Part shown: positions 3,419 to 38,992 of the stretch, one piece after another | Numbering within the stretch: position 1 is the first letter of the stretch | Layout of the letters: each line of letters begins with the position of its first letter | NCBI GenBank assembly: GCA_023248155.1 | Contig: JAHFFE010000007.1 | Span: 4,401 to 68,400 of the forward strand | Direction of reading: 5' to 3' | Source: Candidatus Omnitrophota bacterium | GTDB taxonomy: Bacteria; Omnitrophota; Gorgyraeia; 1-14-0-20-64-10 | Length of the DNA stretch: 64,000 bases | Translations under genes and position numbers: made by a program | The notes under the pieces: generated by a model | What the model saw: the letters and a program-made list of their open reading frames with translations, nothing else | The model's database searches: none | Told to the model about the DNA's origin: nothing

Positions 3419-3445
3419 TTGTACAAAGGGGATACCTATAAGAGG

Positions 3446-14200: not shown

Positions 14201-14382
14201 GGCTGTTGGAACAGTATCCGGCTGTTACGTCCGATGCAATTCAGGATTTCGGAATAACGAAACCGGTTTCTCAAACCGTGGTACAGATTTTTGAAATTCT
14301 GTTTGGCATCACGCCGGATGCCGCGCTTCAGTTCCAATTAGAACAGTTAGTTGCCCAGGCCACGCTGGCCTTCCAGGCATAA
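5227..14382 (+). CDS. Giant exported protein 2 (3051 aa) with an embedded GlmS-like module (class II glutamine amidotransferase + 2 SIS domains)
   Basis: An uninterrupted 9.2 kb ORF with a GGAGAGAGA SD. The N-terminus is TM/signal plus AWALRPG..GLEE. Internal matches to E. coli GlmS by eye: [23 protein letters not shown] (MCGIVG..LRRLEYRGYDSAGLAV), [29 protein letters not shown] ([29 protein letters not shown]), [11 protein letters not shown] (ETDTEVIAHL), SIS motifs [14 protein letters not shown] and [11 protein letters not shown] (VASTKAFTTQL), and C-terminal [10 protein letters not shown], identical to the GlmS C-terminus. Confidence 0.85.
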   Translation: [3051 protein letters not shown]

Positions 14383-14386
14383 AAAA

Positions 14387-23200: not shown

Positions 23201-26200
23201 GCGCAATTGACCAATTATCCAGGCAGCACGCCGAGCTTTATCTTGCGGAGCAGGCCAAATCAAATGGTATTAACCCTCCAAATTGGTACAGAAATCATAC
23301 CTCGTTGGCACAAACGACGGCTCGCCGCGAAGCGATTGCCGCGCATAACCTGCAAGGGTTGTTGATGGATCCGCGCTACGCCTATTCCAACGGTGCGTTG
23401 AAAGAAACCAGCGAAGGCCGGCTTCGTCCGACCGGTGCGCGTAAACGGTACCATCTGATTTACGGTCCCAGCCGCGTGAACTTGGGCGCAGGCGAGCGCG
23501 ATTCGGTTGAGGTTTGGCCGCAGTGGGTAGGCGTTACCGATCCGTTGGCGGCCGCACATGCGCTGGCGTTTTATCAGTTGATCAACTTCAATCCTGAAGT
23601 CCGCACGATTATGGAAGCGGAGAACCTGAAAGTTTCTGAGAATCAGTGGACCGCAATGGTGCGCGCGGTGCGCAATGCTGAAGCCTATTTCGTTGGACGG
23701 CTGGGTGTAGGCGATATTGAAGATCTGGCGCATCAATTCAACCGGCGTAATGGTCTGCCCGGCGCCTGGCTGAAAGACGGAGAATCGTACGCGGCCGGAC
23801 CGACCACCGGCTACTGCATTCCAAAAGACCTCTTATTCAAAATGTTCGTTGCGACGGCACTCGATGGCCGCAAGATGACGCAGATCGGTGTTCCGAGACA
23901 TCTGCAAGCCGGTGTCTTTAAAATGATGTCGGAAATTTTAGCGGCTCAAGCTAATTTCGACACGGTCACCGACTGGGAAGCCTGGGCTGCGCAAACAATG
24001 CTTTCCGAAAGTTCTCTTCGAGAACGGTTCGGCGCAGCGGATGGCGGGAAATTAAACCAGCTATTCAGCCAATATGTTTCTGTTACCGGCGGCGTGACGG
24101 CTTTCCATCTGACGAAAATGCTTCAGATTCTTCAGATGGTTGGCGTTCCCAGCCCGACATTAGTCCCAGGCAAAAATCTGCACGACGCGCTTTGGGCGCA
24201 ATGGGCCGACTTGAAGTTGACGCTGGCTGCCGAGCAGGTGAACCGCTCTTTGATTTTCCCGATGACGCGCGAGATTCCCGATGGTGTTGCCGAAGCCCGC
24301 CGCTTGAACCCGGGCGTGAATATTGCTGCTCCGGAACAAGCCTCAATTCATATGTTTGGCACCTACAAAGGCGATGATGTCGAGGCTCCGCCGCCCGATG
24401 TCCGGTTCTCCTGGACGATGCGTGCATTTATGATTTTATCCGGCTATGGAAAAGAAGTAGCGCTTTCCCTGGATGAAGACGGACAACTTTTGGCGCGGTT
24501 AAGCTGGGATGGTTTTCTTCCAGATTCCACGGATGAGGAAGATATTAAAGTGGCTCGGTTTGTGGCGCAGAAATTTGCAGGTAAAGATCAATTCGGGGCT
24601 GAAGATTTCGCGTTAGTTGAAAAATTAAAACAAGATTTTCCGCATCATACGACGGTTGGCAACATCACGATTACGGTGGTTCCGGGCGTTTCGGCCGAAG
24701 ACTTGCTCGGTTTTAACGCCGAGACAAAATTATTGTTGGGCGATCGCGCCGCCGCAGTGCGCGAACTGCTTATCTCGAAGGGTATTAACACCGGCCAGAT
24801 TACCGCGAATGCTGTGTTGCGCCATGAATTTCCGGCAGAATGGATTCCGTTGCTTGATCTTGACGCCAAAGAACAAACTGCTTTGAAAGAGGCGGTTGCC
24901 GGCGGAATTCATCCGTTGGTATTGCAGCAGCGCGGACCGGGTACCGATTTCGAGCAAGATTTGCAGGCGCAGGATGTTGCCGTTTTCTCGGTCACGCATC
25001 CGGGAATTGTAACGATGGATCCGTCTAAATTGCGCGACTTGATGCAATTGGGCCGCCCGAATGGGTTACAGAGTGCGTTGGTGGCGCATGATATGGTGGC
25101 GCAGGGCCGGCACCGCGTCTGGTTTGACCGCGATGTGATGCTTTGGTACGCGGCTGCGCGCGGCATTGATGCTGAAGGTAATCCGATTCAAAATTGGTCT
25201 GACCGTGATCAGCAAGGCCGCAAGGCTGTTTATAAAGCGTTCGGTTATGGTGAAGATACCTACCGGCCGCTTCTGGGTACCGATCTGCGGCAGGAAACAG
25301 CCCGGCAGGAACGCCGCGCCGCCGAATTGTTTGAATTGGTCCGGAGGGTCGCCGATTCTGATTTAACCACGCAAGTCACTGCCATCACAGCTTTGCAACA
25401 GCAACTTGATGAACTACGGACGCAACTGCGTACCGAAGCCGAGCTGGCGATCAAATACGAGCAGGCAATGCTTTCATTCCGCCGCAACAAACCGCGTGAT
25501 CAGATCATCCGCGGCTCGCTGGTGGCGCTGGCGTCCGGAAAACCGGTTGAACAATTTGATTTCGTGGATTGGCTTGCAGTCGGCGGCATTTATCTGCTGA
25601 ACGGCGCGCCGCAAGCCCGGCAGGATGAGGTTCGTTCTGTTTTTGACCGGGCCGGCCAAAAGATGGCTTCCGGCTTGGAAGAAAATCCGAATGTCGCGTT
25701 GTTAATCCGTCCGCGCCTGGAGCCGACTTCATTGAGCCGTGCAGAAAGAAAAGGGGAAATGTTCTCCGTCAAAGCGACTGAAACTTTCGCCGAAAAAGCG
25801 GTTGCCCGCCGCAAGGGTTTGGCGCTGCAAGCCGCGCGCCAGTCAGCGCTGCAGGCACGCGAAGAAGGTTTTCGTTCGATTGAGCCGGTTAATTCCGTGG
25901 ATGGAATTCTGCCTGCACTCAATGAAGCGCGCGCTGCCCTCAATGGAATGACTGAGCAGGTAGCGAATCGATCCGGGAATGCGGCGCAGATTCACCGCCA
26001 GAGCGGGCAGGTGATGGGAACTGCGGTAGCGGTACTGAATCGTTTGAATCAGGAATTAACACCGGGACCAGACAGGGAAGAAGTCGCCAAGAAAATTCAG
26101 GCGCTTTCCAAGGGCCGCGAACTGGATGAGAAAGCATGGAGTTCGTTTGGCGGCACCTATGAAGACGCGGGCGTACTGGCCCGGTTTTTTGAGCAGGCCG

Positions 26201-29200
26201 GCCCGAATCGCCGTGAATTGGTGGCGGCCGCGATGGAACTTTTGTATCTGACGATGCTGATCGATAAAACGGCCGAATTTGCCGCATTGCCATCCGACGA
26301 TGTCGATGCTCGCCAACTTTGGCGCGCGCTGTCCGTTTATTACGCCGAAACGCTTGACGACCATTTTTATGAATATAATCCCTGGGCGTTTGACCCGAAG
26401 CGCGGTTCAGCGTTTGTCGATTATTATGATGATGTTGGCGTCCTTAAACCGGAACATCGTGAAGAGCTGTACGGTCTTTCGTGGGCGCATCATCGCGCCG
26501 CTTATTCCTATATCCGCGCGCTGGTTCGCGCAAAAACCGATTACGGCAAACTTCCAAAAGAGGAGTATAACGCGTTGCTCGGCGATGTAACGCTCGGCGC
26601 GACTCCCGATCAAGATCAATTAGCCGTTCAGGCAATCGGCGCCGGAGCGCCCGGTCCCAATGAGTTGTTTTGGCGCGCCTATGGCCAGTACCGTGAAATT
26701 GCTGTGATGCAGAATGACGGGTTCGGGGTGCCTGTGGTGTTTGACCAGTTTGATCCCAATACTCCGGAAGTGATCGACGCGCAGCACCGGCTGAACTTCG
26801 CGTTTGTTTCGCCGGTAGGGCGGACCCATTATTCGCGCGCGCTGATGTCGGCCGCGCAGATGGGATCGAACATTTTTATTACGCGTAACGCCGTCGTGAC
26901 CGAAGTTGCCGGTTCCAATGGAAAAGTCGCCACGATCTCCGACGCGCAGTTTTGGTTGACCGAAGCGCAGTACCGCGAAGCACTGATTCGTTTCCGCGGC
27001 ATGGCCCCCAGCGATGCCGATGCGCAGATCGCGCAAGACCGTGCAGCCGGGCGGATTACGCCGCTCGGGATTCGCGTAGCGGCCCGCTTTACGCAACCGG
27101 TGGTTATTTCGGCCGGAGTGTATCTGCACCATCATTCGATTGAGCCGGAATGGATTGCCGCCGGTTATCCGGCCACCGACAAATCGCCGGTGGTTTATGA
27201 AATCAGTTACGACAAGGCGCTCTATCCGAAAATTTACAATCCGGCCGCTGATACAGGCGTTAACCTTCCGCCTGAGATCGATTGGATGCAGACCGATACC
27301 GACGATAGACCCGAAACTGATGTAAAGCAAGATATCGCCAAAATGCTAAGGCCGTTTGCCGAAACGCATGGCATTATCGTTGCCAAAGGTTCTTCTGAGT
27401 CGGGCGCGCGCAACTTCCGGCGGTTCGATTTCTTCAATGACAACGGTTTTAACGAACAGGTTCTTTCGGAAGCGGTCGATTTTATTTATGAAGTGTCGAA
27501 GGGTCAGAATGTCACGATCCAGCGCGCTATCATCGTTACGCCGATCGCCTGGATGGACCCCTCGGGCGTGAACGATTTTGTCAGCCGCCAGATCCGCGAT
27601 CATGGCGTGCCGGCGAATATTCACCGCTATCCGAAAGACTGGGTTTACAGCACGCAGAGAATTATTATGTCGGCCGGTATGCCGAAAAATCTGAATGATC
27701 TTGATAATCCTGCCAACTGGGAAGCGTCGCATCCGATCAGCTTAAGTAGTTTGCAGGTGGCGACCAATGTAGGGCGGCAGGGAACGCTGGAACTGCTTTC
27801 TCCCGATTTAATCCGTCCGGAATTTCGCGATCAGTTTATCCAGGGATTGCAGGATGCGGGGCGCCGTTCAATGGCAGCGATGGCCAAATATGCCCGGCAA
27901 TATTGGCATGAAGTTTATTTGCCGGCTTATCGCGCCGCGCATGATGGAGCCGATCCGCCCGAATTCGATGCGACCGGTGTTCCCTATTGGTGGCCGCGGT
28001 ATCTAATGCTCGATTTTCTGGCCGAGCCGGTTTTTTACCGTAATGGAGTGGAAGCGGTCGGCGCCCGTGTGGTTGATGTGATTCCCGGTGACGCCGCGCG
28101 CAATGTTTCGGCCCGTTTCGTTTTGCAGGATGCCGACGGCAACCGGTTCGATGGCGAAATCCGCGGGTTTAAATATTGGCTGCTGGAACCGAATGTCGGC
28201 ATCGGATTGTGGCCGAATCTTTGGAAGCGGGAAGAACTTCACGAAAGAGCGCGCGCCAAAGCGGATGGCAATCGTCCGATGGATTGGAACCAGGTTGGCG
28301 TCAGCGACCGGGTTGTGCTTGGCAATTATTTGGCGGCCGGCGAAGCGTTTATGAAAGCAAAATTCGGTGGTGATCATTATGGTCCGGGCGGCCCGCGCCG
28401 CGATCCTCCGCCGATGGGTCCTACTTCTGCGGACATATCGCCGCCAGCAACGGCAGTCACTTTCGTGCAACCGCTTGTTACGGATGTTACTTCTCTACAG
28501 CGTGTCGAAGAATTGAAGTTGGATCAAGATTTAAGCCACCCGCTTGCTCCGGTGATCGAAATTCAGCAGGAACCGGCGTCCGCTGAGCAGTTGAGGGCGT
28601 TATTACCGCATGCGCAGACATTCGCTGTCGTTACCGGTAAGCGGACGCTGATGAACCACCATGTCTATCCGTTTGAGGTAGGTAAGGGAACTGCGGCGGT
28701 TAATGTGATTGGTGTGAACGACGAATGGTTGACTGCGGATGGAAAAGCCACTCGGCTGATGGTCTACAATCCGGAGACCGGGCGTTATCTGGAGTTTCCT
28801 CTTGAGCAGCCGGTCGCCATTAACTCTGCGTTCATTGTTGAGTTGCCGCAGAGCCGCGAAGTAGAACGTCATCAGGAGTTAACGCAGCTGCTTGCTTCCA
28901 ATGGCGTGCGTGTTGTTAACCAGGCCGGTGAAGCACAGCGGCATATGGATGATAAAGCCTGGTTACGGCATGAGAGGATTCCTGAGGTGTTGGTTCCCAC
29001 CGCGATGGTTGTGGAGAAAAGCTCCTCTACTGGGGAGGCCACACTAGGGATCATCGCACGGGGAAGTCCTGCCGGAATCATCATTCAGCCTCGGTCTGGA
29101 ACGACCGAAGGTGAAGGAGTCGCATGGTTTTCCGCCGCGGATACCGATGGACAGTTGGCGCATTTGCGGAATTTATTGAAGACCGGCGATGCGATGGTCT

Positions 29201-31983
29201 CTGCTTTCCGCGGTAATGTAACGGTGGGTGGCCGGCCGCTGGTACTGCGTTTCAACTCTATTTCAGATCAGGTGATCTCCGCGTCGGCAGTGGTGGGTCA
29301 GCCTGATTCCCGAGTCGCTTCTCTTGGGCAAGGCGGTGAAAATATTCCGCTGGCTGAAGCGCTTACTCAATTAACAGGACCAGATAACGCATCCGTTGCA
29401 ATCACTGCCGCTGATTGGCAGCAAATTCAGCAATCGGCGCAGAATGTTGCCGATGTGCTCAGAACACCGGTGGCCGGCATCGATATGGTACTTGAAACAA
29501 CACCGGATGGTCATATTCGCGGTGTTTTGATTGAAGCCAATGCCCGTCCCGGCACACTGATCTTGGGCGAGACGGTCCAGTTCCCAGCATCGGATGCCGT
29601 TGAGGATGCATCCATTGAAAGCAGTCCGGCCGCCCCGGTCGGCCCGGCATTTTGGACTGCTCTCGGAATTTCCCAAACAACCACGCGACCAACGCCCTCT
29701 TCAATCACTACTTTGTCACAATGGATCGATCTGTTGCGGAGTGGTCGAACCGATTGGATGACACCGCACTATACGGGAGATTTTGAAGCCCATCGGGTGA
29801 TTTTGGATGAATGGATCAGCCAAGCGCTGAAACGGGAAGTCCCGGGAACATCCGGCACTCCGTTGTTTGATCCGAATCGTCCGATCGCTATAACGCGAAC
29901 TCCCGGCCGGTTTCTGTTTCCGGTGACAGGCCGGCATCTGGATTATTTGGGCGGACAGGGCGGATCGATCGGATCACCTACCCAACAGGAAACGGTGCTC
30001 ATTGCGCAGGAAGTGGAAGGGTTAAATGGACAGATTGAAATTTATCAGATAGTTGCCCCTGATCCGTCTGTTGCCGAAGTCTATCCCAATAATGGATTGG
30101 GCGCCAGAACGATTGATCTAAATAGCCCCTTTGTAAATCCAGACCGGCCGATTCGGACGCTGGCCGATTGGGATACCTGGGCCAAAACGGTGACTGATCA
30201 GAGAAGAGTCGCCCGCGCCCCGGATACCAAAGTTAATTACGCGGACGATTTGGCCGCGGCAATCATCGCGTTTGCCCGCACCGAGCTCGGAGATCCTTCA
30301 GGTAAAATCCGCGCTTATCTGGACCGGATTGCCAGTGAAGGTAAGGGTTTTCGGTTTGCGCTGGCCAGCAACCTACCGACTGGCGGCGGATTGAGTTCCT
30401 CGTCGGCGGTGGCGATTGGATTCGCGCAGACATTGGCCCAGCTGGCTGGCGTTCAGTTGACACATGATCAACTGGTTAATTTTGGTTATGCCGAACGATT
30501 TTACGCCGGTACGCAGGGTGGCTTAAAAGACCACGCCCATCTTACCGGCGATACGGGATATCTTGGGGTTGCTCCTACGCGCACCATCGCGACGATGAGT
30601 CCAATTCCAGGCGCGTCGGTGTTGTTGCTCGATTCCGGCGTTTCGCGCGATAGAGCAATAGCCCTTTCTCCCAAACTAGGCAGCAAGGGCAATGACGAAC
30701 AGAATATTAAAGGTCGTACGGCTACTGGCTATGCATTGGTCAATCTCTTGCTGAGGCATATTCATCCTGAGTTAACAGCCCGGATTGCACCCGATACGCA
30801 AAATCCGGATGGTTATCTTCGCAATCTGGTTCCCGGTAATCCGGGTGGAATGTCGGTACAGGAAGTTTACAAATTGCTGGGCGAAATTCCGGCAGAAGGA
30901 CTCACCCGTAAACAAATGTATGAATTAATGCCGGAATTTAAGTCTGATCTTGATCGTTTATTTGCCAAGGGTGAGGAGCCGCCTGAGCCGTACGCGCTGC
31001 GTGAAATGGCATTGTTTTTCTTTGCCGAAGAATCGCGCAACTGGGAAGTGGTTCGCGTGCTTAACGCTTTGAAAGCGGATGAGATTAATTCGGATCAGGC
31101 GTTTGAACGGTTGATTGAAGTCGGACGCGCCGCGCACAATGGCGACCGCGTCACCCGTTATGAAATTACGCCAGGTGATCAGGGTTCTTTGAATGTCAAC
31201 GCGATCGGTTGGGATTGGCATCTTTCCGATCCGACGCTCGATCAGTATATCGCGAACTCTGATTCCAACGAAGCCGCGCTTTGGCGCCAGGCCGGCCGGC
31301 TGGAACGATCGATTGAACCGCTCGACCGGCTGGTGGATCTGGTTGAATATTATAACCAGCAGCATGGTGGAAATTCCGATGTTGCTGTCGTGATGGGCGC
31401 CGGTTTGGGTGGGACCGTCGGCGTTTTGGCCCGTTCTGATTCTGTCGATGGATTAACGCAATTTCTGAACGAGCATTATTACCAGCCGTTAGGCTTGACC
31501 CATGGACCGGTTATCCGCGCGCAAGCGGGTAAGGGTGCCAGTGTATTGGTTTCCCCAACGGCCGGTCTTGAGGAATCGGCTACCAAGGTTGCTGTTCCTT
31601 CGGCTAGCCGGACAGTGTTCAATGGTCTTGGCGTGGTGGCCGGACCGACCACCACCGGATTGCAGTGGGGGTTGGCCATTGCGCGCAATGGTAAACAGCG
31701 CGACGGCCGGCCGGTGCCGGTAGTTTTTCTGGTCAATAACGATGAGCAGCGCGCGCAGTTGACGAAGGCCGGTTTCGGCGATTTTATTTTCACAAATGAA
31801 TCGGAAGCCATCGCGGCGATTACCGGTTATGGCGTTAAACCGGTTCTGGTTGGTGTGGGTCAATCGGTGCCTGAATCGGTATTCGTCTTGTTTGCCGAGT
31901 TATTCGGCATCGAACTTTCTAATGTGCAGGCCGATTTTTGGCAGGGCGCTTATGCTTCCGCGGCGGTCGATGTCAACGCGTAA
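20230..31983 (+). CDS. Giant exported protein 4 (3917 aa) with a UDP-glucose/GDP-mannose dehydrogenase-like catalytic motif and a C-terminal GHMP-kinase-like domain
   Basis: It starts 5 nt after the preceding stop. The N-terminus has the TM plus SYALRVQQPVGGEAASGLEE. GPTTGYCIPKDLLFKMF matches the UDPGDH catalytic-Cys motif GGSCxPKD. GFRFALASNLPTGGGLSSSSAVAIG matches the GHMP kinase PxGSGLGSSAA motif. Confidence 0.85.
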   Translation: MNLNPKKIISGLIVGTFFFSQVTPSYALRVQQPVGGEAASGLEERLISRPSQGFATRVGAVRGAVQTARRSVGAKQASVAWNLKDGQLSPIAWASGPALPNATTVVPAVLSRAEQGLKWLYGKRSSVAVVENSLRNDLLGDSVSVELRANHGMTLDFDRGDNAVRLDTTIAEELFDSTDIDQNGLSVLYGIGFFYQLQLVAGRSPREAAHLTLALYQNISDTERAALLSVLRSPQIDHGNQWARFFEEGSKPADYRGIDSLELETRLETETNTDTRTALEAVVNHRDKLVSWLLGQQLIDLPYDRTKMLEAMTAFETNVDAGRSLAFEAVKGFDRKVEQANADRVGTMIREEWLPDNMPYPTLLAGRYSRAFGNQGGLAANAVYVEANPGIRDLAQLLETEAKAEQLLAELKALESSVPARALPKFRKAEQRIEALLVQLGPGIARIRLLVSGQAAALTQYKGALQQIRENITIFYREAARVIESARDTANAAGGKGILRRLTQNVSKPFQAAQEKVSEFAAQSGRLATITNDLETAALQAPSQPAAFSVLLQRPSPTGSINFNANELVEKPEQEPALRELARLGGQNSYTSPSYDWVSEATDIIEAAPLFIYERTVVLEDGKSVTVFEVDQEGLEQTVRQMADYWALNIDKTIDSEHLALAREIVVAADPVLSGRAGQLTGQGISVEAAHRQVIYEASEKRPELLRLVGTTAAWLAAEFDRRITEVEKHTEAEWQKDHFIDRMESLRDVVVTGRSPSELLSLAQDAIGSHTAEVDRLTPLALRRRRPMPAFHLLTTQAPGLVQGFFQAVLEEEMALRNVAKAKGLDDEVRDRVKRYQQRIAELGRTVIQEFGYQPILEQKKSELPASMADDEKERQAIQRTIADHMPLQQELAKLAVLVEFAEAEGKPMDPSHPDPSQVEEIISGQTVELTAEAVRAVWQRNQLDPELANKVIALDSTQTDEAAIAQAIHQTPIYEEELQSNIRWLARQRAIDQLSRQHAELYLAEQAKSNGINPPNWYRNHTSLAQTTARREAIAAHNLQGLLMDPRYAYSNGALKETSEGRLRPTGARKRYHLIYGPSRVNLGAGERDSVEVWPQWVGVTDPLAAAHALAFYQLINFNPEVRTIMEAENLKVSENQWTAMVRAVRNAEAYFVGRLGVGDIEDLAHQFNRRNGLPGAWLKDGESYAAGPTTGYCIPKDLLFKMFVATALDGRKMTQIGVPRHLQAGVFKMMSEILAAQANFDTVTDWEAWAAQTMLSESSLRERFGAADGGKLNQLFSQYVSVTGGVTAFHLTKMLQILQMVGVPSPTLVPGKNLHDALWAQWADLKLTLAAEQVNRSLIFPMTREIPDGVAEARRLNPGVNIAAPEQASIHMFGTYKGDDVEAPPPDVRFSWTMRAFMILSGYGKEVALSLDEDGQLLARLSWDGFLPDSTDEEDIKVARFVAQKFAGKDQFGAEDFALVEKLKQDFPHHTTVGNITITVVPGVSAEDLLGFNAETKLLLGDRAAAVRELLISKGINTGQITANAVLRHEFPAEWIPLLDLDAKEQTALKEAVAGGIHPLVLQQRGPGTDFEQDLQAQDVAVFSVTHPGIVTMDPSKLRDLMQLGRPNGLQSALVAHDMVAQGRHRVWFDRDVMLWYAAARGIDAEGNPIQNWSDRDQQGRKAVYKAFGYGEDTYRPLLGTDLRQETARQERRAAELFELVRRVADSDLTTQVTAITALQQQLDELRTQLRTEAELAIKYEQAMLSFRRNKPRDQIIRGSLVALASGKPVEQFDFVDWLAVGGIYLLNGAPQARQDEVRSVFDRAGQKMASGLEENPNVALLIRPRLEPTSLSRAERKGEMFSVKATETFAEKAVARRKGLALQAARQSALQAREEGFRSIEPVNSVDGILPALNEARAALNGMTEQVANRSGNAAQIHRQSGQVMGTAVAVLNRLNQELTPGPDREEVAKKIQALSKGRELDEKAWSSFGGTYEDAGVLARFFEQAGPNRRELVAAAMELLYLTMLIDKTAEFAALPSDDVDARQLWRALSVYYAETLDDHFYEYNPWAFDPKRGSAFVDYYDDVGVLKPEHREELYGLSWAHHRAAYSYIRALVRAKTDYGKLPKEEYNALLGDVTLGATPDQDQLAVQAIGAGAPGPNELFWRAYGQYREIAVMQNDGFGVPVVFDQFDPNTPEVIDAQHRLNFAFVSPVGRTHYSRALMSAAQMGSNIFITRNAVVTEVAGSNGKVATISDAQFWLTEAQYREALIRFRGMAPSDADAQIAQDRAAGRITPLGIRVAARFTQPVVISAGVYLHHHSIEPEWIAAGYPATDKSPVVYEISYDKALYPKIYNPAADTGVNLPPEIDWMQTDTDDRPETDVKQDIAKMLRPFAETHGIIVAKGSSESGARNFRRFDFFNDNGFNEQVLSEAVDFIYEVSKGQNVTIQRAIIVTPIAWMDPSGVNDFVSRQIRDHGVPANIHRYPKDWVYSTQRIIMSAGMPKNLNDLDNPANWEASHPISLSSLQVATNVGRQGTLELLSPDLIRPEFRDQFIQGLQDAGRRSMAAMAKYARQYWHEVYLPAYRAAHDGADPPEFDATGVPYWWPRYLMLDFLAEPVFYRNGVEAVGARVVDVIPGDAARNVSARFVLQDADGNRFDGEIRGFKYWLLEPNVGIGLWPNLWKREELHERARAKADGNRPMDWNQVGVSDRVVLGNYLAAGEAFMKAKFGGDHYGPGGPRRDPPPMGPTSADISPPATAVTFVQPLVTDVTSLQRVEELKLDQDLSHPLAPVIEIQQEPASAEQLRALLPHAQTFAVVTGKRTLMNHHVYPFEVGKGTAAVNVIGVNDEWLTADGKATRLMVYNPETGRYLEFPLEQPVAINSAFIVELPQSREVERHQELTQLLASNGVRVVNQAGEAQRHMDDKAWLRHERIPEVLVPTAMVVEKSSSTGEATLGIIARGSPAGIIIQPRSGTTEGEGVAWFSAADTDGQLAHLRNLLKTGDAMVSAFRGNVTVGGRPLVLRFNSISDQVISASAVVGQPDSRVASLGQGGENIPLAEALTQLTGPDNASVAITAADWQQIQQSAQNVADVLRTPVAGIDMVLETTPDGHIRGVLIEANARPGTLILGETVQFPASDAVEDASIESSPAAPVGPAFWTALGISQTTTRPTPSSITTLSQWIDLLRSGRTDWMTPHYTGDFEAHRVILDEWISQALKREVPGTSGTPLFDPNRPIAITRTPGRFLFPVTGRHLDYLGGQGGSIGSPTQQETVLIAQEVEGLNGQIEIYQIVAPDPSVAEVYPNNGLGARTIDLNSPFVNPDRPIRTLADWDTWAKTVTDQRRVARAPDTKVNYADDLAAAIIAFARTELGDPSGKIRAYLDRIASEGKGFRFALASNLPTGGGLSSSSAVAIGFAQTLAQLAGVQLTHDQLVNFGYAERFYAGTQGGLKDHAHLTGDTGYLGVAPTRTIATMSPIPGASVLLLDSGVSRDRAIALSPKLGSKGNDEQNIKGRTATGYALVNLLLRHIHPELTARIAPDTQNPDGYLRNLVPGNPGGMSVQEVYKLLGEIPAEGLTRKQMYELMPEFKSDLDRLFAKGEEPPEPYALREMALFFFAEESRNWEVVRVLNALKADEINSDQAFERLIEVGRAAHNGDRVTRYEITPGDQGSLNVNAIGWDWHLSDPTLDQYIANSDSNEAALWRQAGRLERSIEPLDRLVDLVEYYNQQHGGNSDVAVVMGAGLGGTVGVLARSDSVDGLTQFLNEHYYQPLGLTHGPVIRAQAGKGASVLVSPTAGLEESATKVAVPSASRTVFNGLGVVAGPTTTGLQWGLAIARNGKQRDGRPVPVVFLVNNDEQRAQLTKAGFGDFIFTNESEAIAAITGYGVKPVLVGVGQSVPESVFVLFAELFGIELSNVQADFWQGAYASAAVDVNA

Positions 31984-34900
31984 TACACTTTTCCAAAAGA
32001 TCTCAGGCGCCGTTCTTATCGGCGCCTTTCTTTTTGTGAACGCGGCGCCGGGTTATGCACTGCGCGCCACTCAGCCGGTAGTGGGCTCCGGTGCCGAAGA
32101 GCTTAGACAAAAACTTTCCGTCAATAATTCCGTTCCTGCTTTTGCCGGACAGGAGGAAACGCCGCCATCGCCGATTATGGGCCATCGTTTGGTGGAGACC
32201 GGAATTCCGGGTTACCGCCGCGTTGTTTATTTTCTGCAGGACGGTTCTTCGTGGAATGGCGGTGTTGTCCGTTCTGATGTCCCTGAAAATGCGATTGCTT
32301 CGACCGCTTATCTAGCCCCGTACAGTTTTGCGGAAGGGGCAGCGGCGCGATTGGAAGATGGCGCGCAGGTGGCAGACGGATCGGCCGTTATTAATTCGGC
32401 GATTCGTTCCGGCGCGAAGTTGAATGGTTCCGTCGCGGAAAATGCGCTGGTTCATCCGGCGGCCTGGGTTTCGTATTCAGCGCTGGGTCCGGCGTTTGAT
32501 GACGACAGCTGGAGTTATTCGCTAGCGACCGAAAGAGACTCCGAGCTTTCAGTTCGCAATCATTTGGCTTTTTTTGCGCGTAATACTTACCGCGTGGAAG
32601 TCGGTTACAACAGTTCGGTGCGCGGATCGGTTTTTCAAGACAGCGCTGTCGGCCCGGACAGTGATATTTTTGGGAGCGCGTTGGTAATCAGCCGCTGGGG
32701 TGAACAGACCCGCATGGACGGCGGCGTAAAATCGTGGCTGGCGGTCGGCGCGCAGGGCCATGCCGATATTGCCGGCGTTCAGCATCGTCCTGACGGGACC
32801 GAGATTCCGGCCGCGCTGGAAATCGCCGAGGCCGCTTATCAGGGATTGCCGGCCGAACAATATCCCGGCACTCAAATTCACGAGCACCATGTCGGTTATA
32901 CAGAGGCGGTTATTACCAACAGCGTACCGTTAGTCGGTTATACCGCCGGGGAATTAACTGTTACACCTTATCTGGTTCCTCCCATAACCTTATTCGGCGA
33001 TTACACAATTTTCTCGATCTTCGCCGGTTCTCCGAATCCACAGGGAATTAAAACTGACGGCAGGCCGACGCCCGGTGTTATTACGCGCTTGACCGGCGGT
33101 CCCGGCGAACAGAGCAGTCAGCATGGCCGGATTATTTCCGACCCGCTTTCAATTCTCCCCGGATTTTCAAATGTGATCGGCCGTCTGCTGGGATTCCCGG
33201 AACTGGATAATCCATTGGCACTGCTGACCGAACCGGAAGTGACGCATCTGGGCCCTCTCTCGGCTGTCGGCGCCGATGCGCAGCTCGGTTTAAATGGTCT
33301 GGAAGGATGGGGGCAGATATTACCGGCCGAAGCGCGCGGCCAGTTAAGCCGCGGTTCCGGCATTGCGCCCTGGGTATTTTTGTATTCTCCCGAGGTTCTT
33401 TTTTCTTTGATGGGTCAGCTGGCTTCCGGTTTACCTGCGAATGATCAGTCCCGGTACGATGATTTGCCGCAGCGGTTACTGGAATCAGGACTGGCCTTAA
33501 GCCGATGGATGCTCGATCAGGAACAGGCAAAAGACGCGCAAGCCAACGCGCAGGTGATTGAACGGCTTGAGCGGTACATCGCTGGTTTTTCGGCATTGAT
33601 TGAGAGCGAGGCCTGGGCCGGAAAATGGGTGCAGGATGGGGAACTGCGTCACCCGGAACAGTGGCAACGCTATGGCGATCGGTGGGAAACCAGTTCTCTA
33701 AATCTTGCAAACATGCATCGTCAGATTCATCCATTTGCCGATTCGGTTCCGTATACGCAAGTTCCTCTTCGTTACTTGTTGGCGGTTCCCGATGGTGTCG
33801 ATCGTCCCGATTGGAGCCAGTGGACCGGCTACTATCTGAAACCCGAAGACCTTCAGACCAGTCCGCCCACACCGCTCGATCAATTAGAGCAGGTGGATGA
33901 ATCGTTAAAAGAATGGAGAATTATCGGACAGGACGCAAAATTTTATTACACGGTCGAGGGCGGCCGGATCGGCCGTGAAGTCGATTTAAAGATGATTCAT
34001 CCTTCTGCGCTGATTGGTCCCGGCACGGTGTTAATCGGAGCGGCCACTTCGGTGGGCGAAGGGACCCGCCTGCTTCGCGTCATTGCCGATAATACGGTAA
34101 TCGGCAGCGAAACCCATCTGACCGCCGTTTATTCCAGAAGCACTGTTTTTGGAAACGGGATTAAACTGACTTGGGCGAAAACGACCCGCCTGGTGAGGAT
34201 TGGAGATGGCACCGTCGGTTCCTATGTCGGCATCTCGGAAGGGAGTGTCGTTGGAAAAAATAATACCTTTGAGCCATTTGCGCTGGTGATTAATTCCACC
34301 ACGGGACCTAATAACGTGATCGGCATTTCGTTGGTGAACAGCCAGGTTCAGCCTGGTTTCATGGGACGGCATCTTTCGACGGCGGTGCATAACCTTCAGC
34401 AGCAATCGGTTCGTTTTCAAGTCAACGGAAAAAACTATGATTTGAAGGCCGCTTCCCTCAATGTGGCTGGTGGGTTGTTCGTTCAGGGCAATGATAAGAC
34501 CCCGGTTCGTTTGAGTTCGGCTTATCCGCTTTCGCTGACAACGATTGATCCGGGGAATGGACAGAAGTTCGCAGTCGGCGCTTTCAGCGTTCTTAAAAAT
34601 CAAATTCGTCTCGACGACGGGCAAATCCTGCCACTGACATTTCATGCGTTCAATCATGTGGCATCCACTGATCCGCTATTTGCCCAGCCGGGCCGGCACA
34701 ACGACTCCATCGGCGGCGCGCTGGAATTCCCGGGAATTTTTCTGCGCAATTTTATCTATCGGACGAAGAAAGGAATTTATGACGATCTGGCCGCGCAGGG
34801 ATTAACGCGCGAGCAGATTCTTGTCCATCCGCGGATGCTGCAGTCCGATTATATGATTGAGGCGACCATTGTCAGCGCGCTGGTGCAGGTAATCAATCAA

Positions 34901-35734
34901 CTGCGCGAGATCGATATGGATGCGTATGATCATTTGGTTGGAACCGGTAATGCGGCGCTGGGCCGGCTGTTAAAATTGGCGGAAGGTGATCTGTCGCAAA
35001 TTGAGCAGGGCGATCAATCTGCGCTAGGTGTTCGAACTCCCCAGCTGCAGGTACAAATTAAAATGGCTATTAGGCAGGTTCAGCAGGCATTGGATTCTTT
35101 GCCGGGAAGCCGTCCTTCCGCCGGCACCGTTTCTTCGTCGGGGCATACGGCCGCGCAGTTATTGGAAGGGGTTGCGCGGTTGTCGCAAAATCTCGATGGC
35201 CGCTGGCGGATGCGCAACCACACGTTTACTGAAGTCGAATGGCGTTACCAGGCGTACGATGCGTCCCGCCGCGCGCGCGATACCTGGGTTCCTGTCTCGA
35301 AACCCGATTCATTGCCGATTCCGCTGCCGGCCGGAGCATTGTCCGAAGGGAAATATCTTTTTATCGCCCCGAGCGTGGCTGTTCCCGAACTTTGGGCTGG
35401 TTTGGGCCGGCTGAAGCCGTCTTCCGGAGAAACAATCGGTCTGGTTATTTTTGGCCGAGATGCCGGTCATCTGGAAACTATTCGGGCAGAGATGATGGGG
35501 TATTCATTTGCGTCATCGGCGAAATTCATCGATCTATCTCAGTACAGCGACGATTTGATGCGGGCGGTTGCGGGTCAGGTGGCTGTGCTGGGCAGTAATG
35601 ATGCATTTGAATACCGGCTGATCCGAACATTCAGCGATCTCGGTGTTATTGGGAAGTTCCTCCAAATTCCGGATATTTCGTTCCGTGCCTGGGAGCGGCA
35701 AATTCAGAACGCCGGGTTCGAAGAATATGTATAA
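31970..35734 (+). CDS. Giant exported protein 5 (1254 aa from ATG 31970) with a left-handed beta-helix (hexapeptide acyltransferase-like) region
   Basis: The ATG overlaps the last 14 nt of gene 4. The N-terminus is MSTRNTLFQKISGAVLIGAFLFVNAAPGYALRATQPVVGSGAEELRQ. An LbH-like run IGPGTVLIGAATSVGEGTRLLRVIADNTVIGSETHLTAV...IGDGTVGSYVGISEGSVVGKNN is present. The upstream in-frame ATGs at 31796 and 31952 would add a non-hydrophobic extension, so 31970 is preferred. Confidence 0.8.
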   Translation: MSTRNTLFQKISGAVLIGAFLFVNAAPGYALRATQPVVGSGAEELRQKLSVNNSVPAFAGQEETPPSPIMGHRLVETGIPGYRRVVYFLQDGSSWNGGVVRSDVPENAIASTAYLAPYSFAEGAAARLEDGAQVADGSAVINSAIRSGAKLNGSVAENALVHPAAWVSYSALGPAFDDDSWSYSLATERDSELSVRNHLAFFARNTYRVEVGYNSSVRGSVFQDSAVGPDSDIFGSALVISRWGEQTRMDGGVKSWLAVGAQGHADIAGVQHRPDGTEIPAALEIAEAAYQGLPAEQYPGTQIHEHHVGYTEAVITNSVPLVGYTAGELTVTPYLVPPITLFGDYTIFSIFAGSPNPQGIKTDGRPTPGVITRLTGGPGEQSSQHGRIISDPLSILPGFSNVIGRLLGFPELDNPLALLTEPEVTHLGPLSAVGADAQLGLNGLEGWGQILPAEARGQLSRGSGIAPWVFLYSPEVLFSLMGQLASGLPANDQSRYDDLPQRLLESGLALSRWMLDQEQAKDAQANAQVIERLERYIAGFSALIESEAWAGKWVQDGELRHPEQWQRYGDRWETSSLNLANMHRQIHPFADSVPYTQVPLRYLLAVPDGVDRPDWSQWTGYYLKPEDLQTSPPTPLDQLEQVDESLKEWRIIGQDAKFYYTVEGGRIGREVDLKMIHPSALIGPGTVLIGAATSVGEGTRLLRVIADNTVIGSETHLTAVYSRSTVFGNGIKLTWAKTTRLVRIGDGTVGSYVGISEGSVVGKNNTFEPFALVINSTTGPNNVIGISLVNSQVQPGFMGRHLSTAVHNLQQQSVRFQVNGKNYDLKAASLNVAGGLFVQGNDKTPVRLSSAYPLSLTTIDPGNGQKFAVGAFSVLKNQIRLDDGQILPLTFHAFNHVASTDPLFAQPGRHNDSIGGALEFPGIFLRNFIYRTKKGIYDDLAAQGLTREQILVHPRMLQSDYMIEATIVSALVQVINQLREIDMDAYDHLVGTGNAALGRLLKLAEGDLSQIEQGDQSALGVRTPQLQVQIKMAIRQVQQALDSLPGSRPSAGTVSSSGHTAAQLLEGVARLSQNLDGRWRMRNHTFTEVEWRYQAYDASRRARDTWVPVSKPDSLPIPLPAGALSEGKYLFIAPSVAVPELWAGLGRLKPSSGETIGLVIFGRDAGHLETIRAEMMGYSFASSAKFIDLSQYSDDLMRAVAGQVAVLGSNDAFEYRLIRTFSDLGVIGKFLQIPDISFRAWERQIQNAGFEEYV

Positions 35735-35830
35735 TATAGATATAGGTTCGATTTACATTTCTTTAGGTGCCATTGACGAACCATCGGTTATCGGCGATAC
35801 TTCGAGCAGACAGAGGAGACCAGGACTTTT

Positions 35831-37744
35831 ATGAATATCCCAAGCGATAAATCGCCCCGTTTCGTTTTCCGGTTTTTTTCAGCTTTGTTTATGGTGGCCC
35901 TGGTTTTCGTAATGCCTGCAACCCTCTTTGCCGATCCAACGCCGGTTCCCGAATCTTCCGCTGAAGCGGCCAAACCGCCTACGGCCCAGAATAACAAGGA
36001 TTATGTGCCGGGCGAGGTATTGGTCCGTATCAAGGATGGTGTTCCGGTCTCGCAGGTGGCGGCACTCGCCAAATCGATGGGCGCGAACCTCGACCGCCGC
36101 GTTACTTCGTGGGGACTCTATCTTTTTAAGTTCAGTGATTCCGCTCCAATTGATGAAGTTGTCAATCGTCTTCGCCAGCACCCGGCGGTTCAATATGCCG
36201 AGCCCAACGGAAAAATGCAGTTGTTCGGCGTCGGCGACGGCAGCGGATCCGGTTCGGAAAATTCTTCGGCAGGAACCCCGATTCTGGTGGCCGTGATTGA
36301 TACCGGCATTGATTTGAATCATACGGCGTTCGCCGGACATCTGTATCAGAACCTGCGCGAGATCGCCGGCGACGGCATTGATAACGACGGCAACGGTTAT
36401 GTCGACGACGTCAATGGATTTGATTTTTACAGCCGTTCCTCCTCCCCGATGGGAACGGCTGGTTCCGGCGCGCACGGTACGCAGGTGACCGGGCGCATTT
36501 TGCAGGGTGCCGTCGACGCGCCGGTTTCGGTGATGGCGCTGAGGGTCGGCCCCGGGCCGTCGCTTTCGTTGGCGGCCATCGTTGAAGCGATCGATTACGC
36601 CGTCAACAACGGCGCGAAAGTTATCAATATGAGCCTCGGCGCAACGATGCCGTATCAGGCGCTTTCCGAAGCGGTTCAGCGCGCGATTGACCGCGGCGTG
36701 ATTGTCGTGGCGGCGGCTGGCAACAGCGGCGCCGTGACGCCGAACTATCCGGCCGCTTTGCCGGGCGTGATATCGGTGGCCGCGTCCGACGCCAATGGCG
36801 CAAAAACCTGGTGGTCAAACTACGGCAGCACTGTCGATTTCACGGCGCCCGGTGATCAGGTAGTCACTACGACTTTCGGCGGAGGAAACGCCGCCGTCAG
36901 CGGAACTTCATTCTCGGCGCCGTTTGTGGCCGGCATGGTCGCGCGTATTCTTTCGGCCATGCCGAACCTCGGCGTAAATGATGTGATTAATAATTTGAAG
37001 GCATTTGCCAAAGATATTTACGCGGTGAACCACAGTTTTTACCAGGGCAAGCTGGGGCAGGGATTCCTCGACGAGCAGGTGGCTTCGCGCATCGCGCAGG
37101 CATTTCCGTTAGCGCCGCGGTCTCCGGCCGATCAGCCGCAGAATCAGAAGGATATGCTCGATGCCCAATTGGCCGCCGCGCAGAGGGAAGTCGCCCGGCT
37201 TGAATCGGAACTTTCCGCCGCAGACCGGAACCTGACCGCCGCGCATGAAGCTACTGTCGCTGCGAATGCACAAGTGGATCAGGCGGTGCAGAATGCCAAC
37301 CAGGCCTGGAAAGATTTCACGAATGCCTGGAGCGCCTGGTTCCGCGCCAGTTACTCGATCCGTGTTTCTCCGCAGGAAAAAGAATCACTGCGCCAGAAAA
37401 TGCAGCAGGCCTGGGAAAAAATGAACAAGGCCAACGCCGAAAAGCAGGATGCCCAGGCCCGCCAGCGCGTGGCGCAGTCGGATGAGAACCGGATCCGGAC
37501 CCAGCGTGAATCAATCGCCACCCAGCTGCGCGGCGCGCGCCAGCAGGTGGACGACATCAACCGGCGCCTTTCGGCGCTGATCAACCCGGCGCAGGGGGGA
37601 CAGGCCGAAACGAACTCGTTGTTGGGCCGTCTGCACGCGATTTCTCAATCGCTTAGTTTCGGGCCGCGCGGTCTGGGAATGCAGGAAGCGTCCGAATTGT
37701 CGCTGCCGGGTTCCGACAACGATCAGAATACAAGCGCTAAATAA
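35831..37744 (+). CDS. Secreted S8 subtilisin-like serine protease with a C-terminal coiled-coil region
   Basis: A GAGGAGA SD precedes the ATG. There is a signal peptide. Catalytic triad motifs: VAVIDTGID (Asp), HGTQVTG (His), GTSFSAPFVAG (Ser). The C-terminal ~180 aa are Q/A/R/E-rich heptad-like sequence. Confidence 0.85.
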   Translation: MNIPSDKSPRFVFRFFSALFMVALVFVMPATLFADPTPVPESSAEAAKPPTAQNNKDYVPGEVLVRIKDGVPVSQVAALAKSMGANLDRRVTSWGLYLFKFSDSAPIDEVVNRLRQHPAVQYAEPNGKMQLFGVGDGSGSGSENSSAGTPILVAVIDTGIDLNHTAFAGHLYQNLREIAGDGIDNDGNGYVDDVNGFDFYSRSSSPMGTAGSGAHGTQVTGRILQGAVDAPVSVMALRVGPGPSLSLAAIVEAIDYAVNNGAKVINMSLGATMPYQALSEAVQRAIDRGVIVVAAAGNSGAVTPNYPAALPGVISVAASDANGAKTWWSNYGSTVDFTAPGDQVVTTTFGGGNAAVSGTSFSAPFVAGMVARILSAMPNLGVNDVINNLKAFAKDIYAVNHSFYQGKLGQGFLDEQVASRIAQAFPLAPRSPADQPQNQKDMLDAQLAAAQREVARLESELSAADRNLTAAHEATVAANAQVDQAVQNANQAWKDFTNAWSAWFRASYSIRVSPQEKESLRQKMQQAWEKMNKANAEKQDAQARQRVAQSDENRIRTQRESIATQLRGARQQVDDINRRLSALINPAQGGQAETNSLLGRLHAISQSLSFGPRGLGMQEASELSLPGSDNDQNTSAK

Positions 37745-37796
37745 CGGCCCTCGCCGCCGTCTTGTCATCGCTCCACGCCTCTGGTAAACTGATTCC

Positions 37797-38252
37797 GTGA
37801 AGAAACAATTCATTTTTTGGATCATTTTTTTGTCTTTTTTCGCTTCCGCGCATGCGGCAGAACTTGATCTGTTTGCCCAGGTGGACCGGCAGCAGCTGCG
37901 CCCAGGAGAACGGCTGACCTACGCCGTTACACTGGTGGGAGCGATGGTTCACGGCACGCCCCGTTTGGAACTCAACGAATTCAAGGGATTTTCGGTTATT
38001 TCTACCGGTCAGTCCCAGCAGGTTCGGATGCACAACGGGCAGACCCAGCAGGCGGTTACATTGACCTACACGCTTTCTCCATCGACGCCGGGCACTTATC
38101 TTTTAGGTCCGGCGCGCGTCGAATACGAAGGCAAGGTCTATGCCACTGAAGCCATTGAAATTCAGGTTGTTGAAGACGGTGAACAAAAAGTTCCGCCGGC
38201 TCGGGGCAACCCGCGTAAAGCTCCGGCGTTAAGAGGAGGAGTCGTTTTGTGA
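37797..38252 (+). CDS. Small secreted protein of unknown function
   Basis: A GTG start is followed by a signal peptide MKKQFIFWIIFLSFFASAHA. No family was recognised. Confidence 0.5.
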   Translation: MKKQFIFWIIFLSFFASAHAAELDLFAQVDRQQLRPGERLTYAVTLVGAMVHGTPRLELNEFKGFSVISTGQSQQVRMHNGQTQQAVTLTYTLSPSTPGTYLLGPARVEYEGKVYATEAIEIQVVEDGEQKVPPARGNPRKAPALRGGVVL

Positions 38253-38992
38253 ACAGGCATTTTTTTCCCGCGCTGGCGCTGATTCTTTCAATCGGGCTTG
38301 TCGGCGGCTGCGCCGGCGGCCAGAAAAAGCGGCAGATCGAAACACTTGAAACGCGCACAACAGAACTGCAACAGCAGTTGTCCGATGCCGAAAATTCGCG
38401 CCGCTCTCTGCAGCGCGCGCTGGATCAGGCCCGCGCCGACTTAAGCGAGGCGCAGCGCGACCATGCCGATCAGATTCGCCGGCTTTTGCAGGATAAAGAA
38501 AAGGAAACCGACAGCCTCGTAGAAGCGCAGCGCCGCCTGGCGATCAGCCTGAAAAAAGAGCTCGACGATTCCAAAGCCAAGCTGGAAATGACCGAGCGCG
38601 GGCTCGTCTTGACGCTGCTCGACGAAATTTTCTTTGATTCCGGCAAGGCCGTCATTAAAGAGGAAAGTTTCCCGACGCTCGATAAGGTGGCCAAGGTTCT
38701 CAAGGAGACCGTTCCGAACAGTTCGGTGGCGGTGGAAGGGCACACCGACGACCAGCCGATCAAATATTCGGGCTGGCGGACCAACTGGGAACTTTCCAGC
38801 GGCCGGGCGTTGGCCGTGGTTCATTACTTTATCGATCAGCAAAAGGTAGCCTCAGAACGGATGCAGGCGGTAGCCCGCGGGGAATTTCACCCAGTGGCTT
38901 CTAATACGACCGCAGAAGGCCGCCGGCAGAATCGGCGCGTGGAAGTAGTGATCCTGCCCAGCCATCTCAAGAAAGACAAGCCGGGGCGCTGA
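38249..38992 (+). CDS. OmpA/MotB-family lipoprotein with a coiled-coil linker
   Basis: Lipobox LVGGC. The coiled-coil region (ELQQQLSDAENSRRSLQRALDQAR...) is followed by an OmpA-like C-terminal domain (FFDSGKAVIKEES...VEGHTDDQP...GRRQNRRVEVV). Confidence 0.75.
   Translation: MNRHFFPALALILSIGLVGGCAGGQKKRQIETLETRTTELQQQLSDAENSRRSLQRALDQARADLSEAQRDHADQIRRLLQDKEKETDSLVEAQRRLAISLKKELDDSKAKLEMTERGLVLTLLDEIFFDSGKAVIKEESFPTLDKVAKVLKETVPNSSVAVEGHTDDQPIKYSGWRTNWELSSGRALAVVHYFIDQQKVASERMQAVARGEFHPVASNTTAEGRRQNRRVEVVILPSHLKKDKPGR

Follow-up and report, generated by a model that had tools for sequence, protein, structure and literature searches.

Giant proteins are widespread in the phylum Omnitrophota, according to a survey that does not mention proteases (PMC10066038). 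West-Roberts et al. (2023) described giants of Omnitrophota as "Archaeovorins" and proposed that S8 and C39 domains embedded in them cleave the giants (bioRxiv 10.1101/2023.11.21.568195). A 2026 preprint catalogued ROK, PGM, and other enzyme domains in the giants and mentions no cleavage motif. Whether the giants work as single chains or as cut pieces is a question raised in this literature. Here, we describe a free-standing subtilase gene that directly follows four giant genes in a 64,000-nucleotide stretch of DNA from a Candidatus Omnitrophota bacterium (contig JAHFFE010000007.1), which we call the window. The gene is at 35831-37744 on the + strand. We propose, with moderate confidence, that it encodes an exported, self-activating, envelope-tethered endopeptidase and is an accessory, separately promoted neighbor of the giant array. 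The locus gives two handles on the question: an apparently active subtilase after one family of giants, and a junction peptide, A-G-L-E-E or "AGLEE", within those giants. Together, these turn a vague idea about the cleavage of giants into one that is directly testable.

The S8 and C39 domains of Archaeovorins are embedded and are proposed to be autocatalytic, whereas the window's subtilase is free-standing, seems to have its own promoter, and has a coiled-coil tail. None of its best 120 homologues is an S8 domain embedded in a giant. The Archaeovorin loci have genes similar to those of type II secretion systems (T2SS) 5' of the giants and genes for PilZ proteins and transporters 3' of them, and a subtilase gene like the window's was not reported (bioRxiv 10.1101/2023.11.21.568195).

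In sequence and fold, the closest relatives are broad-specificity proteases of family S8A: deseasin MCP-01 (PDB 3vv3), AK.1 protease, thermitase (1thm), subtilisins, pro-subtilisin E (3whi), and fervidolysin (1r6v). A profile search of the PDB with the subtilase gave deseasin MCP-01 (E = 3.4e-54) and thermitase (4e-45), and a Foldseek search with an AlphaFold2 (AF2) model gave pro-subtilisin E (3.7e-23) as well as deseasin, fervidolysin, and thermitase. The model was built as a monomer on an alignment of 24 orthologues; its mean predicted local distance difference test score (pLDDT) is 79, with about 90 in the catalytic core. The catalytic domain (residues 150-425, 36278-37105, as delimited by Pfam, the alignment, Foldseek, and the PDB profile search) matches Peptidase_S8 (PF00082) over residues 150-385 with E = 1.3e-40 and 139.9 bits, against a cut-off of 21.8 bits. 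The catalytic residues D157 (in DTG, codon 36299-36301), H215 (HGT, 36473-36475), and S360 (GTSFSAP, 36908-36910), and the oxyanion asparagine N298 (36722-36724), are all on the + strand and are invariant in the 24 orthologues. An earlier note on this DNA had called the protein an S8 protease with intact D/H/S motifs, and these matches bear it out.

The rest of the N-terminal part is as expected for a secreted pre-pro-enzyme. The complete coding sequence (637 amino acids) starts with ATG, and a direct reading of the sequence finds a ribosome-binding site (GAGGAG, 35813-35818, +) 13 nt 5' of it. A predicted signal peptide (about residues 1-34; 35831-35932, +) has the core FFSALFMVALVFVMPATLF with a hydropathy of 2.32, and in a hydropathy scan this is the only strongly hydrophobic segment of the protein. 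The cut is predicted to lie near the junction of LFA and DP; aligned orthologues have clearer A-x-A sites than the window's protein does. A fervidolysin-type prodomain follows (residues 46-131; 35966-36223, +). It matches PF22148 (Fervidolysin_NPro-like) over residues 46-126 with E = 8.7e-15 and 55.3 bits (cut-off 21 bits), is modeled with a pLDDT of about 94, lies between the signal peptide and the catalytic domain, and ends in a conserved V-x-YAEPN strand (residues 120-131 in the AF2 model).

The thermitase/subtilisin-type proteases with the four structures above share this fold, the D-H-S triad, the oxyanion asparagine, and the prodomain that ends in YAEPN. They also commonly have the Asp/Gly-rich loop that reads DGIDNDGNGYVDD in the window's subtilase. 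What deseasin, thermitase, pro-subtilisin E, and fervidolysin lack is its C-terminal part, which is a two-helix coiled coil and a PLPxGL...EVPDL module. Instead, the C-terminal domains of fervidolysin and deseasin are of the beta-sandwich or PKD type. We conclude that the subtilase belongs to family S8A but is new in its C-terminal architecture, and that it is intact and apparently an active secreted enzyme.

Several described classes of subtilase are held at the cell envelope or act on products of their own locus, and we compared the window's protein with each of them. Mycosins are membrane-tethered subtilases of type VII secretion systems (T7SS), and their own locus encodes the secreted substrate that they process. 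The mycosin family TIGR03921 is the best NCBIfam match, at 132.4 bits against a cut-off of 278.75, and this match covers the catalytic domain and part of the linker. The window's protein has no C-terminal transmembrane anchor, and there are no ESX genes nearby in the window, so it is not a mycosin. Dentilisin (PrtP-PrcA-PrcB of Treponema denticola) includes a subtilase in an outer-envelope complex with a lipoprotein, and it cleaves a partner from the same operon. The NCBIfam match is weak (82 bits vs. a 300-bit cut-off), the tail is unrelated, and no homologue of PrcA or PrcB was found. PatA/PatG (TIGR03895, 78.2 bits vs. a 421-bit cut-off) are S8 proteases of cyanobactin maturation that recognize a short linear motif, and PatA recognizes G(L/V)E(A/P)S, which resembles A-G-L-E-E. 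However, their substrates are short precursor peptides, whereas the window's subtilase would act on huge proteins; the window contains no cyanobactin cluster, and the subtilase has no PatA-type C-terminal DUF domain.

For a helical stalk on a subtilase that is held at the surface, the closest analogy in function is the H domain of the cell-envelope proteinases PrtP and SpyCEP. In lactococcal PrtP, an all-helical H domain of about 230 residues lies between the subtilase and the cell surface (PMC7783315). These are proteins of Gram-positive bacteria with about 1,800-1,960 residues, a PA insert, A and B fibronectin-like domains, a W spacer, and an LPXTG anchor. The window's protein has 637 residues and no PA or Fn3-like domains, W spacer, LPXTG motif, or C-terminal hydrophobic anchor; its helical region is the one analogous part, so it falls outside this class. 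It has no PF01483 P domain and its post-catalytic region is all helical, unlike kexin/furin proteases (S8B). Its match to autotransporter subtilases of the SSP/EprS type (NF051851) is 16 bits against a cut-off of 1,700, and its C-terminus is helical or disordered, unlike the beta-barrel translocator of that class. It has no C-terminal hydrophobic segment, which LPXTG, PEP-CTERM, and GlyGly-CTERM signals have between a signature motif and a basic tail. Its helix, PLPxGL..EVPDL motif, and acidic disordered end also differ from the C-terminal domain (CTD) of type IX secretion systems (T9SS), a beta-sandwich of about 80 residues, and neither Pfam nor NCBIfam gave a sorting-domain match or any known secretion-signal family in its C-terminus.

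The tail consists of coiled-coil helix 1 (residues 436-507; 37136-37351, +), which includes a Trp-rich stretch AWKDFTNAWSAWF, and coiled-coil helix 2 (residues 514-584; 37370-37582, +). Both were assigned from the AF2 model and the heptads, and helix 1 from the alignment as well. Over residues 436-609 (174 residues), 47% of positions are Q, A, R, or E, compared with 23% in the catalytic domain. The heptad register is single and unbroken: a and d positions are hydrophobic in 86% of cases in the first helix and 75% in the second, against 31% and 14% at the other positions. AF2 models the two helices as about 70 residues each with a six-residue turn between them, followed by a third helix (586-609) and a disordered end. 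Because the turn is short, the two long helices would most likely pair as an antiparallel hairpin of about 10 nm. The tail is conserved across orthologues that are 40-92% identical, including the Trp-rich stretch and the C-terminal PLPxGLxxxEVPDL. We compared a profile of the tail to 1.84 billion cluster representatives (clustered at 50% identity) and found 11 clusters at E < 1e-30. All 11 are this coiled-coil subtilase or fragments of it, and weaker matches were generic coiled-coil noise. The earlier note had described a Q/A/R/E-rich heptad tail as unusual for subtilases, and since the profile is confined to so few clusters, we agree. The tail is real, under selection, and specific to one clade of Omnitrophota.

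The tail ends in a module (37586-37708, +) that comprises a short helix and the motif (S)PLPxGLxxxE(V/A)(P/S)(D/E)L, as defined by the alignment. The window's version is GPRGLGMQEASELSLPG, and AF2 leaves an acidic end after it disordered. This module is portable. The last 40 or so residues of the orthologue P0024 are 72% identical to the C-terminus of P0153, a GH9 glycosidase of 1,114 residues (L103, 228-3572) with an N-terminal hydrophobic segment that resembles a signal peptide. P0153 is encoded next to a cytoplasmic glyoxalase-II-type protein of the metallo-beta-lactamase (MBL) fold and a Fic-like protein, with no giants in this context; this MBL protein is unrelated to the MBL proteins of the subtilase loci. 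Also, the paralogue P0131 (L100, 2844-4139) has the prodomain, the coiled coil, and the C-terminal module but no catalytic domain. It lies among rhodanese and Fe-S assembly genes, again without giants. Since both P0153 and P0131 are encoded away from giants and carry the module, we infer that it is a docking or targeting element of exported proteins and is not specific to giants. That P0131 keeps the stalk and the module without the catalytic domain suggests that the stalk has a function of its own. A two-helix stalk with a portable C-terminal module is an undescribed decoration of exported hydrolases (a protease and a GH9 glycosidase).

From these features, we infer export, autoprocessing, tethering, and substrate range as follows. 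The pre-pro-subtilase would be exported by Sec and lose its signal peptide. The prodomain would fold the catalytic domain and then be removed autocatalytically, as expected from what is known of the family. The catalytic domain (about 275 residues) would remain mounted on a rigid coiled coil, formed by two helices of 70 residues each and about 10 nm long, that ends in the portable module, i.e., the helix and (S)PLPxGLxxxEVPDL. By analogy with the lactococcal H domain, the stalk and the terminal module may anchor the enzyme to a partner in the envelope and keep it at a constant distance, where its job would be extracytoplasmic endoproteolysis. The gene itself would be an accessory insertion between the giant array and the envelope genes, (MBL)-(BatD)-OmpA-lipoprotein. 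The neighboring giants are plausible clients, via their AGLEE junctions, but this part of the proposal is tentative.

The array is at 5227-35734 and encodes four paralogous giant exported proteins (5227-14382, 14387-20224, 20230-31983, and 31970-35734, all +) of 3,051, 1,945, 3,917, and 1,254 amino acids. We moved two starts relative to the list of open reading frames (ORFs): from 14351 to 14387 (MKIKF...), and from 31796 to 31970 or 31952 (MSTRN... or MLPRRS...). Pfam-type domains within the giants are ROK in g1957 (residues 987-1291 of the ORF-list translation), SIS in g3051, and a GHMP kinase in g3917; g1312, the last giant, has a weak, sub-threshold LbH/hexapeptide match. At their C-termini, the giants have a homologous alpha/beta domain of about 150 residues in common, encoded in the last 450 nt or so of each gene. 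A fold search with a model of this domain found no significant match in the PDB (best E = 0.013, generic Rossmann-like, from a shallow alignment). We had considered two C-terminal types and dropped them, as all fall in one BLAST cluster. As a separate observation, these cytoplasm-type domains of sugar metabolism are embedded in proteins with export signals. The 2026 preprint reports the same paradox in larger giants.

The subtilase gene begins exactly 96 nt after the stop of the last giant gene (at 35734), as the earlier note had it. In 10 of 11 informative loci (those with enough upstream DNA, from public assemblies, on single contigs, and with L001 and L092 counted as one lineage), it lies directly 3' of a giant gene on the same strand, with gaps of 41-136 nt. 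The ten are the window, L003, L005, L086, L087, L088, L089, L090, L093, and L095, and their subtilases are 45-52% identical. The position that the note described is therefore conserved, but the shared orientation that it also pointed out carries little information, because nearly every gene from 51 to 60249 in the window is on the + strand. The loci are also collinear far to the 3' side (OmpA, PALP, ThiS, NIL, extracytoplasmic-function (ECF) sigma factor, Metal_resist, OEP). Therefore, they are not independent observations, and the adjacency of giant and subtilase may be inherited gene order.

Where this gene order is broken, which is the case in two lineages, the subtilase and the giants part. 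In the P0024 lineage (L001/L092), the subtilase is among NUDIX, RHH, and Fic genes, with no giant beside it. In L096 (4187-11307), MBL-fold, BatD, and OmpA genes come directly after AGLEE-bearing giants that share 51% identity with the last giant of the window, and the subtilase is absent from the 19 kb that we read; the genes after OmpA differ from those of the other loci. So the subtilase does not strictly co-occur with the giants on the single contigs that we compared, and its coupling to the array is not obligatory. The family is also tiny and restricted to one clade of Omnitrophota; its named homologues are annotated as S8 peptidases of Candidatus Omnitrophota or Omnitrophica. As to how these loci were found, a scan of contigs with the full-length subtilase alignment was swamped by generic S8 proteases (the best match was 36% identical) and recovered no orthologue, and the alignment of the tail alone was too variable for patterns. 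The catalytic signature L[RQK]VGPGP recovered six metagenome loci, which we used for synteny. A search with g1312 found itself and one homologue with 51% identity, which led to L096.

The gap before the subtilase contains a candidate sigma-70-like promoter (TTGACG-17 nt-GATACT, 35773-35801, +). In the window and nine other loci (214,962 nt, + strand), the pattern TTGAC[AG]-N16-18-NANACT matches nine times, and seven of these matches are in the gap before a subtilase. Hence 7 of the 10 loci have a promoter-like site 10-35 nt 5' of the subtilase's start (outside the window, L003 at 9946, L086 at 7019, L087 at 9937, L088 at 9961, L093 at 9310, and L095 at 9350), and the short contig L094 (position 311) is an eighth case. 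This conserved footprint speaks for a subtilase gene that can be transcribed on its own. It argues for a conserved promoter that belongs to the subtilase, and read-through from the giants remains compatible with it: we saw no convincing intrinsic terminator in the gaps between giants and subtilases. Genes within the array are much closer together than this 96-nt gap, with 4-29 nt between them or overlaps of 14-32 nt. The G+C content at third codon positions (GC3) also sets the giants apart. It is 0.52-0.56 in the four giants, which form a compositionally distinct block (5227-35734). It is 0.67 in the subtilase, 0.67 in g592 (which heads the array), 0.69 in OmpA, and 0.71 in PALP, and GH94 is also within the range of the flanks (0.67-0.75); among the flanking genes, BatD (0.55) is an exception.

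The giants contain a repeated short peptide. The pattern [AGST]-G-[LMQA]-E-E occurs 44 times in 28,790 amino acids of giants, compared with 1.2 times expected from shuffled sequences (about 35-fold), and not at all in 9,114 amino acids of other proteins from the window. With more loci included, it occurs 62 times in 40,589 residues of giants. In the window, these codons begin near 5353, 13621, 14498, 18239, 19802, 19964, 20159, 20350, 25672, 31564, 32090, and 32147. Two of the junction peptides are VLVSPTAGLEESATKVAV (31546-31599) and ARKTAAGQEETITLESAA (18221-18274). The giants of L003, L005, L086-L090, L093, L095, and L096 have the motif as well. Because its codons differ synonymously, it is the peptide that is under selection. 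We did not find a description of this motif in the literature that we searched on Omnitrophota giants.

About half of the copies are at homologous positions: near the N-terminus, and at distances of about 140 and 80 residues from the C-terminal end. In an AF2 model from a shallow alignment, the copy that usually precedes the C-terminal domain is in a segment that is left disordered, while the copy at about 80 residues sits within the folded domain. About 20 of the 44 copies are internal. In an all-against-all BLASTP of 19 giants, internal copies had a median distance of 5.5 amino acids to the end of a homology block, compared with 97 at random (p = 6.5e-14). Half of them are within 5 residues of an alignment end, against 6% at random. 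The motif is the start of an alignment in 24 of 46 cases and the end in 16 of 46, often with an offset of 0. This test has a bias, as a conserved pentamer attracts alignment ends; yet homologous flanks would carry the alignment through. The flanks are rich in Pro, Ala, and Thr. Because the internal copies are at the ends of homology blocks, the motif marks the points where shuffled modules meet. A protease site is one possibility, as leucine at P1 and small residues at P2 and P3 would suit a subtilase; a role in binding or as a linker is just as possible.

Several observations weigh against the proposal of an accessory envelope enzyme. With adjacency in 10 of 11 loci, gaps of just 41-136 nt, and no convincing terminator in them, the link to the giants may be stronger than we suggest. 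The enriched junction motif may also be just what such a subtilase would cut. The helices of the tail could pair between subunits instead of within one, since the hairpin packing derives from a monomeric AF2 model. Finally, a profile search with the 50-residue C-terminal module returned just one fragment.

The main alternative is that the subtilase is a dedicated processing protease that is held on its stalk and acts in trans, cutting the giant polyproteins at A-G-L-E-E (for instance, after the leucine). These cuts would free the enzyme-like modules and detach the C-terminal domain and the N-terminal stub. We consider this, including the products it would yield, to be rather unlikely, although several observations favor it. 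Besides the position directly after a giant in 10 of 11 loci, the motif is enriched in giants and absent from other proteins of the window, is under selection as a peptide, and when internal is at the ends of homology blocks with Pro/Ala/Thr-rich flanks. The copy before the C-terminal domain is in a segment that AF2 leaves disordered, both the subtilase and the giants have export signals, and the cleavage of Omnitrophota giants has already been raised as a question (bioRxiv 10.1101/2023.11.21.568195). However, L096 has AGLEE-bearing giants and no S8 gene in the 19 kb read, and the P0024 lineage has an S8 gene without an adjoining giant. The codon composition of the S8 gene differs from that of the giants, and the gene has a conserved promoter to itself. 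The linker between the prodomain and the catalytic domain of a subtilase usually mirrors its substrate specificity; in the alignment, this linker is not conserved, and it has no AGLEE-like sequence. A GH9 enzyme whose gene is not near giants also ends in the C-terminal module, and about half of the AGLEE copies are at homologous positions, with the copy at about 80 amino acids within a folded domain. Also, giants occur widely across the phylum (PMC10066038), but the subtilase family is tiny.

The earlier note had suggested that the subtilase matures the giants, and this has weak support, with the balance tilted against a dedicated maturase: the conserved adjacency and the AGLEE junctions speak for it, while the separated lineages, the gene's own promoter, the GC3 values, and the module shared with GH9 speak against it. 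The release of embedded domains, which the note also mentioned, is possible given the enrichment of AGLEE at module junctions. A stronger form of this idea is that the stalk-mounted subtilase is a trans-acting reader of an AGLEE junction code, which releases ROK, SIS, GHMP-kinase, LbH, and other enzyme-like modules from a conserved C-terminal anchoring domain. We think that this stronger form is unlikely. If it is true, bacteria would have, outside the cytoplasm, a counterpart of viral polyprotein processing or of the release of MARTX effectors. If the subtilase is instead a general envelope enzyme, it is a modest addition to the known domain architectures of subtilases. The stalk and its portable module may point to an envelope docking system in these uncultured bacteria.

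A second alternative is that the enzyme is a released predatory or nutritional protease whose tail serves as a propeptide at the C-terminus or as a helper of secretion and is lost when the enzyme matures. There is a precedent in aqualysin-type subtilases, in which a C-terminal propeptide is removed on maturation. The closest solved relatives are degradative, broad-specificity S8A proteases, and the presence of the module on a glycosidase would fit a common export or targeting signal of secreted hydrolases. Omnitrophota have been proposed to be predators or parasites (PMC10066038). But a heptad coil of 2 x 70 residues that is kept across orthologues of 40-92% identity is far more elaborate than the known C-terminal propeptides, no known secretion-signal family matches the tail, and P0131 keeps the prodomain, stalk, and module without a catalytic domain. 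We consider this alternative unlikely.

Last, the earlier note had suggested that the subtilase might mature the N-terminal region (a hydrophobic segment and LRP..EE) that the giants share. This N-terminus (5227-5320, 14387-14490, 20230-20330, and 31970-32070, all +; an N-terminal peptide is PSYALRPLAAGQEERTQ) looks like a Sec signal peptide with a site for signal peptidase I. Every complete giant has a basic stretch, a hydrophobic stretch, P-x-[YW]-A, and then L-R-P, as in ALPAWA/LRP, VPSYA/LRP, APGYA/LRA, and SPSMA/LRP, where the slash marks the putative cut. The small residues at -3 and -1 fit the rule for signal peptidase I, so no subtilase is needed to remove it. A role in removing this leader is very improbable, even though the N-terminus is common to all of the array's proteins and the giants of related loci and the first G-L-E-E copy follows 10-20 residues after the L-R-P site, because the layout is the n-h-c layout of Sec with small residues (AWA, SYA, GYA, SMA) before L-R-P, similar signal peptides are found on the subtilase itself, BatD, and the 592-amino-acid protein at the head of the array, and the subtilase is far below the cut-offs of the PatA/PatG and mycosin models, with nothing that resembles a leader peptidase. 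In our proposal, it is not a maturase of signal peptides or leaders.

Downstream of the subtilase, the window encodes an exported BatD-like Ig-fold protein of 151 amino acids (37797-38252, +; PF13584, E = 2.8e-20; with a signal peptide) and a peptidoglycan-binding lipoprotein of the OmpA/MotB type (38249-38992, +) with the lipobox LVGGC and a coiled coil of about 95 residues. BatD is preceded by a further promoter-like site (TTGTCA-17-TAAACT, 37762-37790), which has a TG. The OmpA lipoprotein is present in every giant-holding locus that was read that far, whereas S8, MBL, and BatD vary. Its coiled coil is kept in the locus without S8, so it is independent of the protease's tail. The lipoprotein is visibly better conserved across loci than the subtilase is, and its layout recalls a spacer like Braun's lipoprotein fused to the OmpA C-terminal domain. 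Beyond it are a PALP enzyme, an ECF sigma factor, and metal-resistance genes.

We considered a few other links and rejected them. A role in defense has little basis, as PADLOC gave just a generic "subtilase" match and coiled-coil noise. In L001, an ORF of 141 amino acids that overlaps the S8 start might have been a miniature substrate, but it has no signal peptide and no AGLEE. Subtilases fused to PilZ (33-38% identical) are not equivalent to the PilZ genes in the literature, as they lie among MreC, PBP2, and SurA genes without giants. A search of the window with Rfam found no RNA families.

The array is headed by an exported protein of 592 amino acids (3419-5197, +; the probable start is 3446), whose N-terminus reads PSIYA/VQEEG. 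Residues 454-510 have a weak, sub-threshold match to the Tiki/ChaN superfamily (PF04187, E = 0.027), and a PDB sequence search with this protein gave no match. Its motifs HIQDAH, RDQAMMDN, and GGFH resemble those of TraB/Tiki metalloproteases, and the cluster may thus hold a second candidate protease. Just 5' of the array (51-3217), ROK and GH94 (cellobiose-phosphorylase-type) also occur as free-standing genes.

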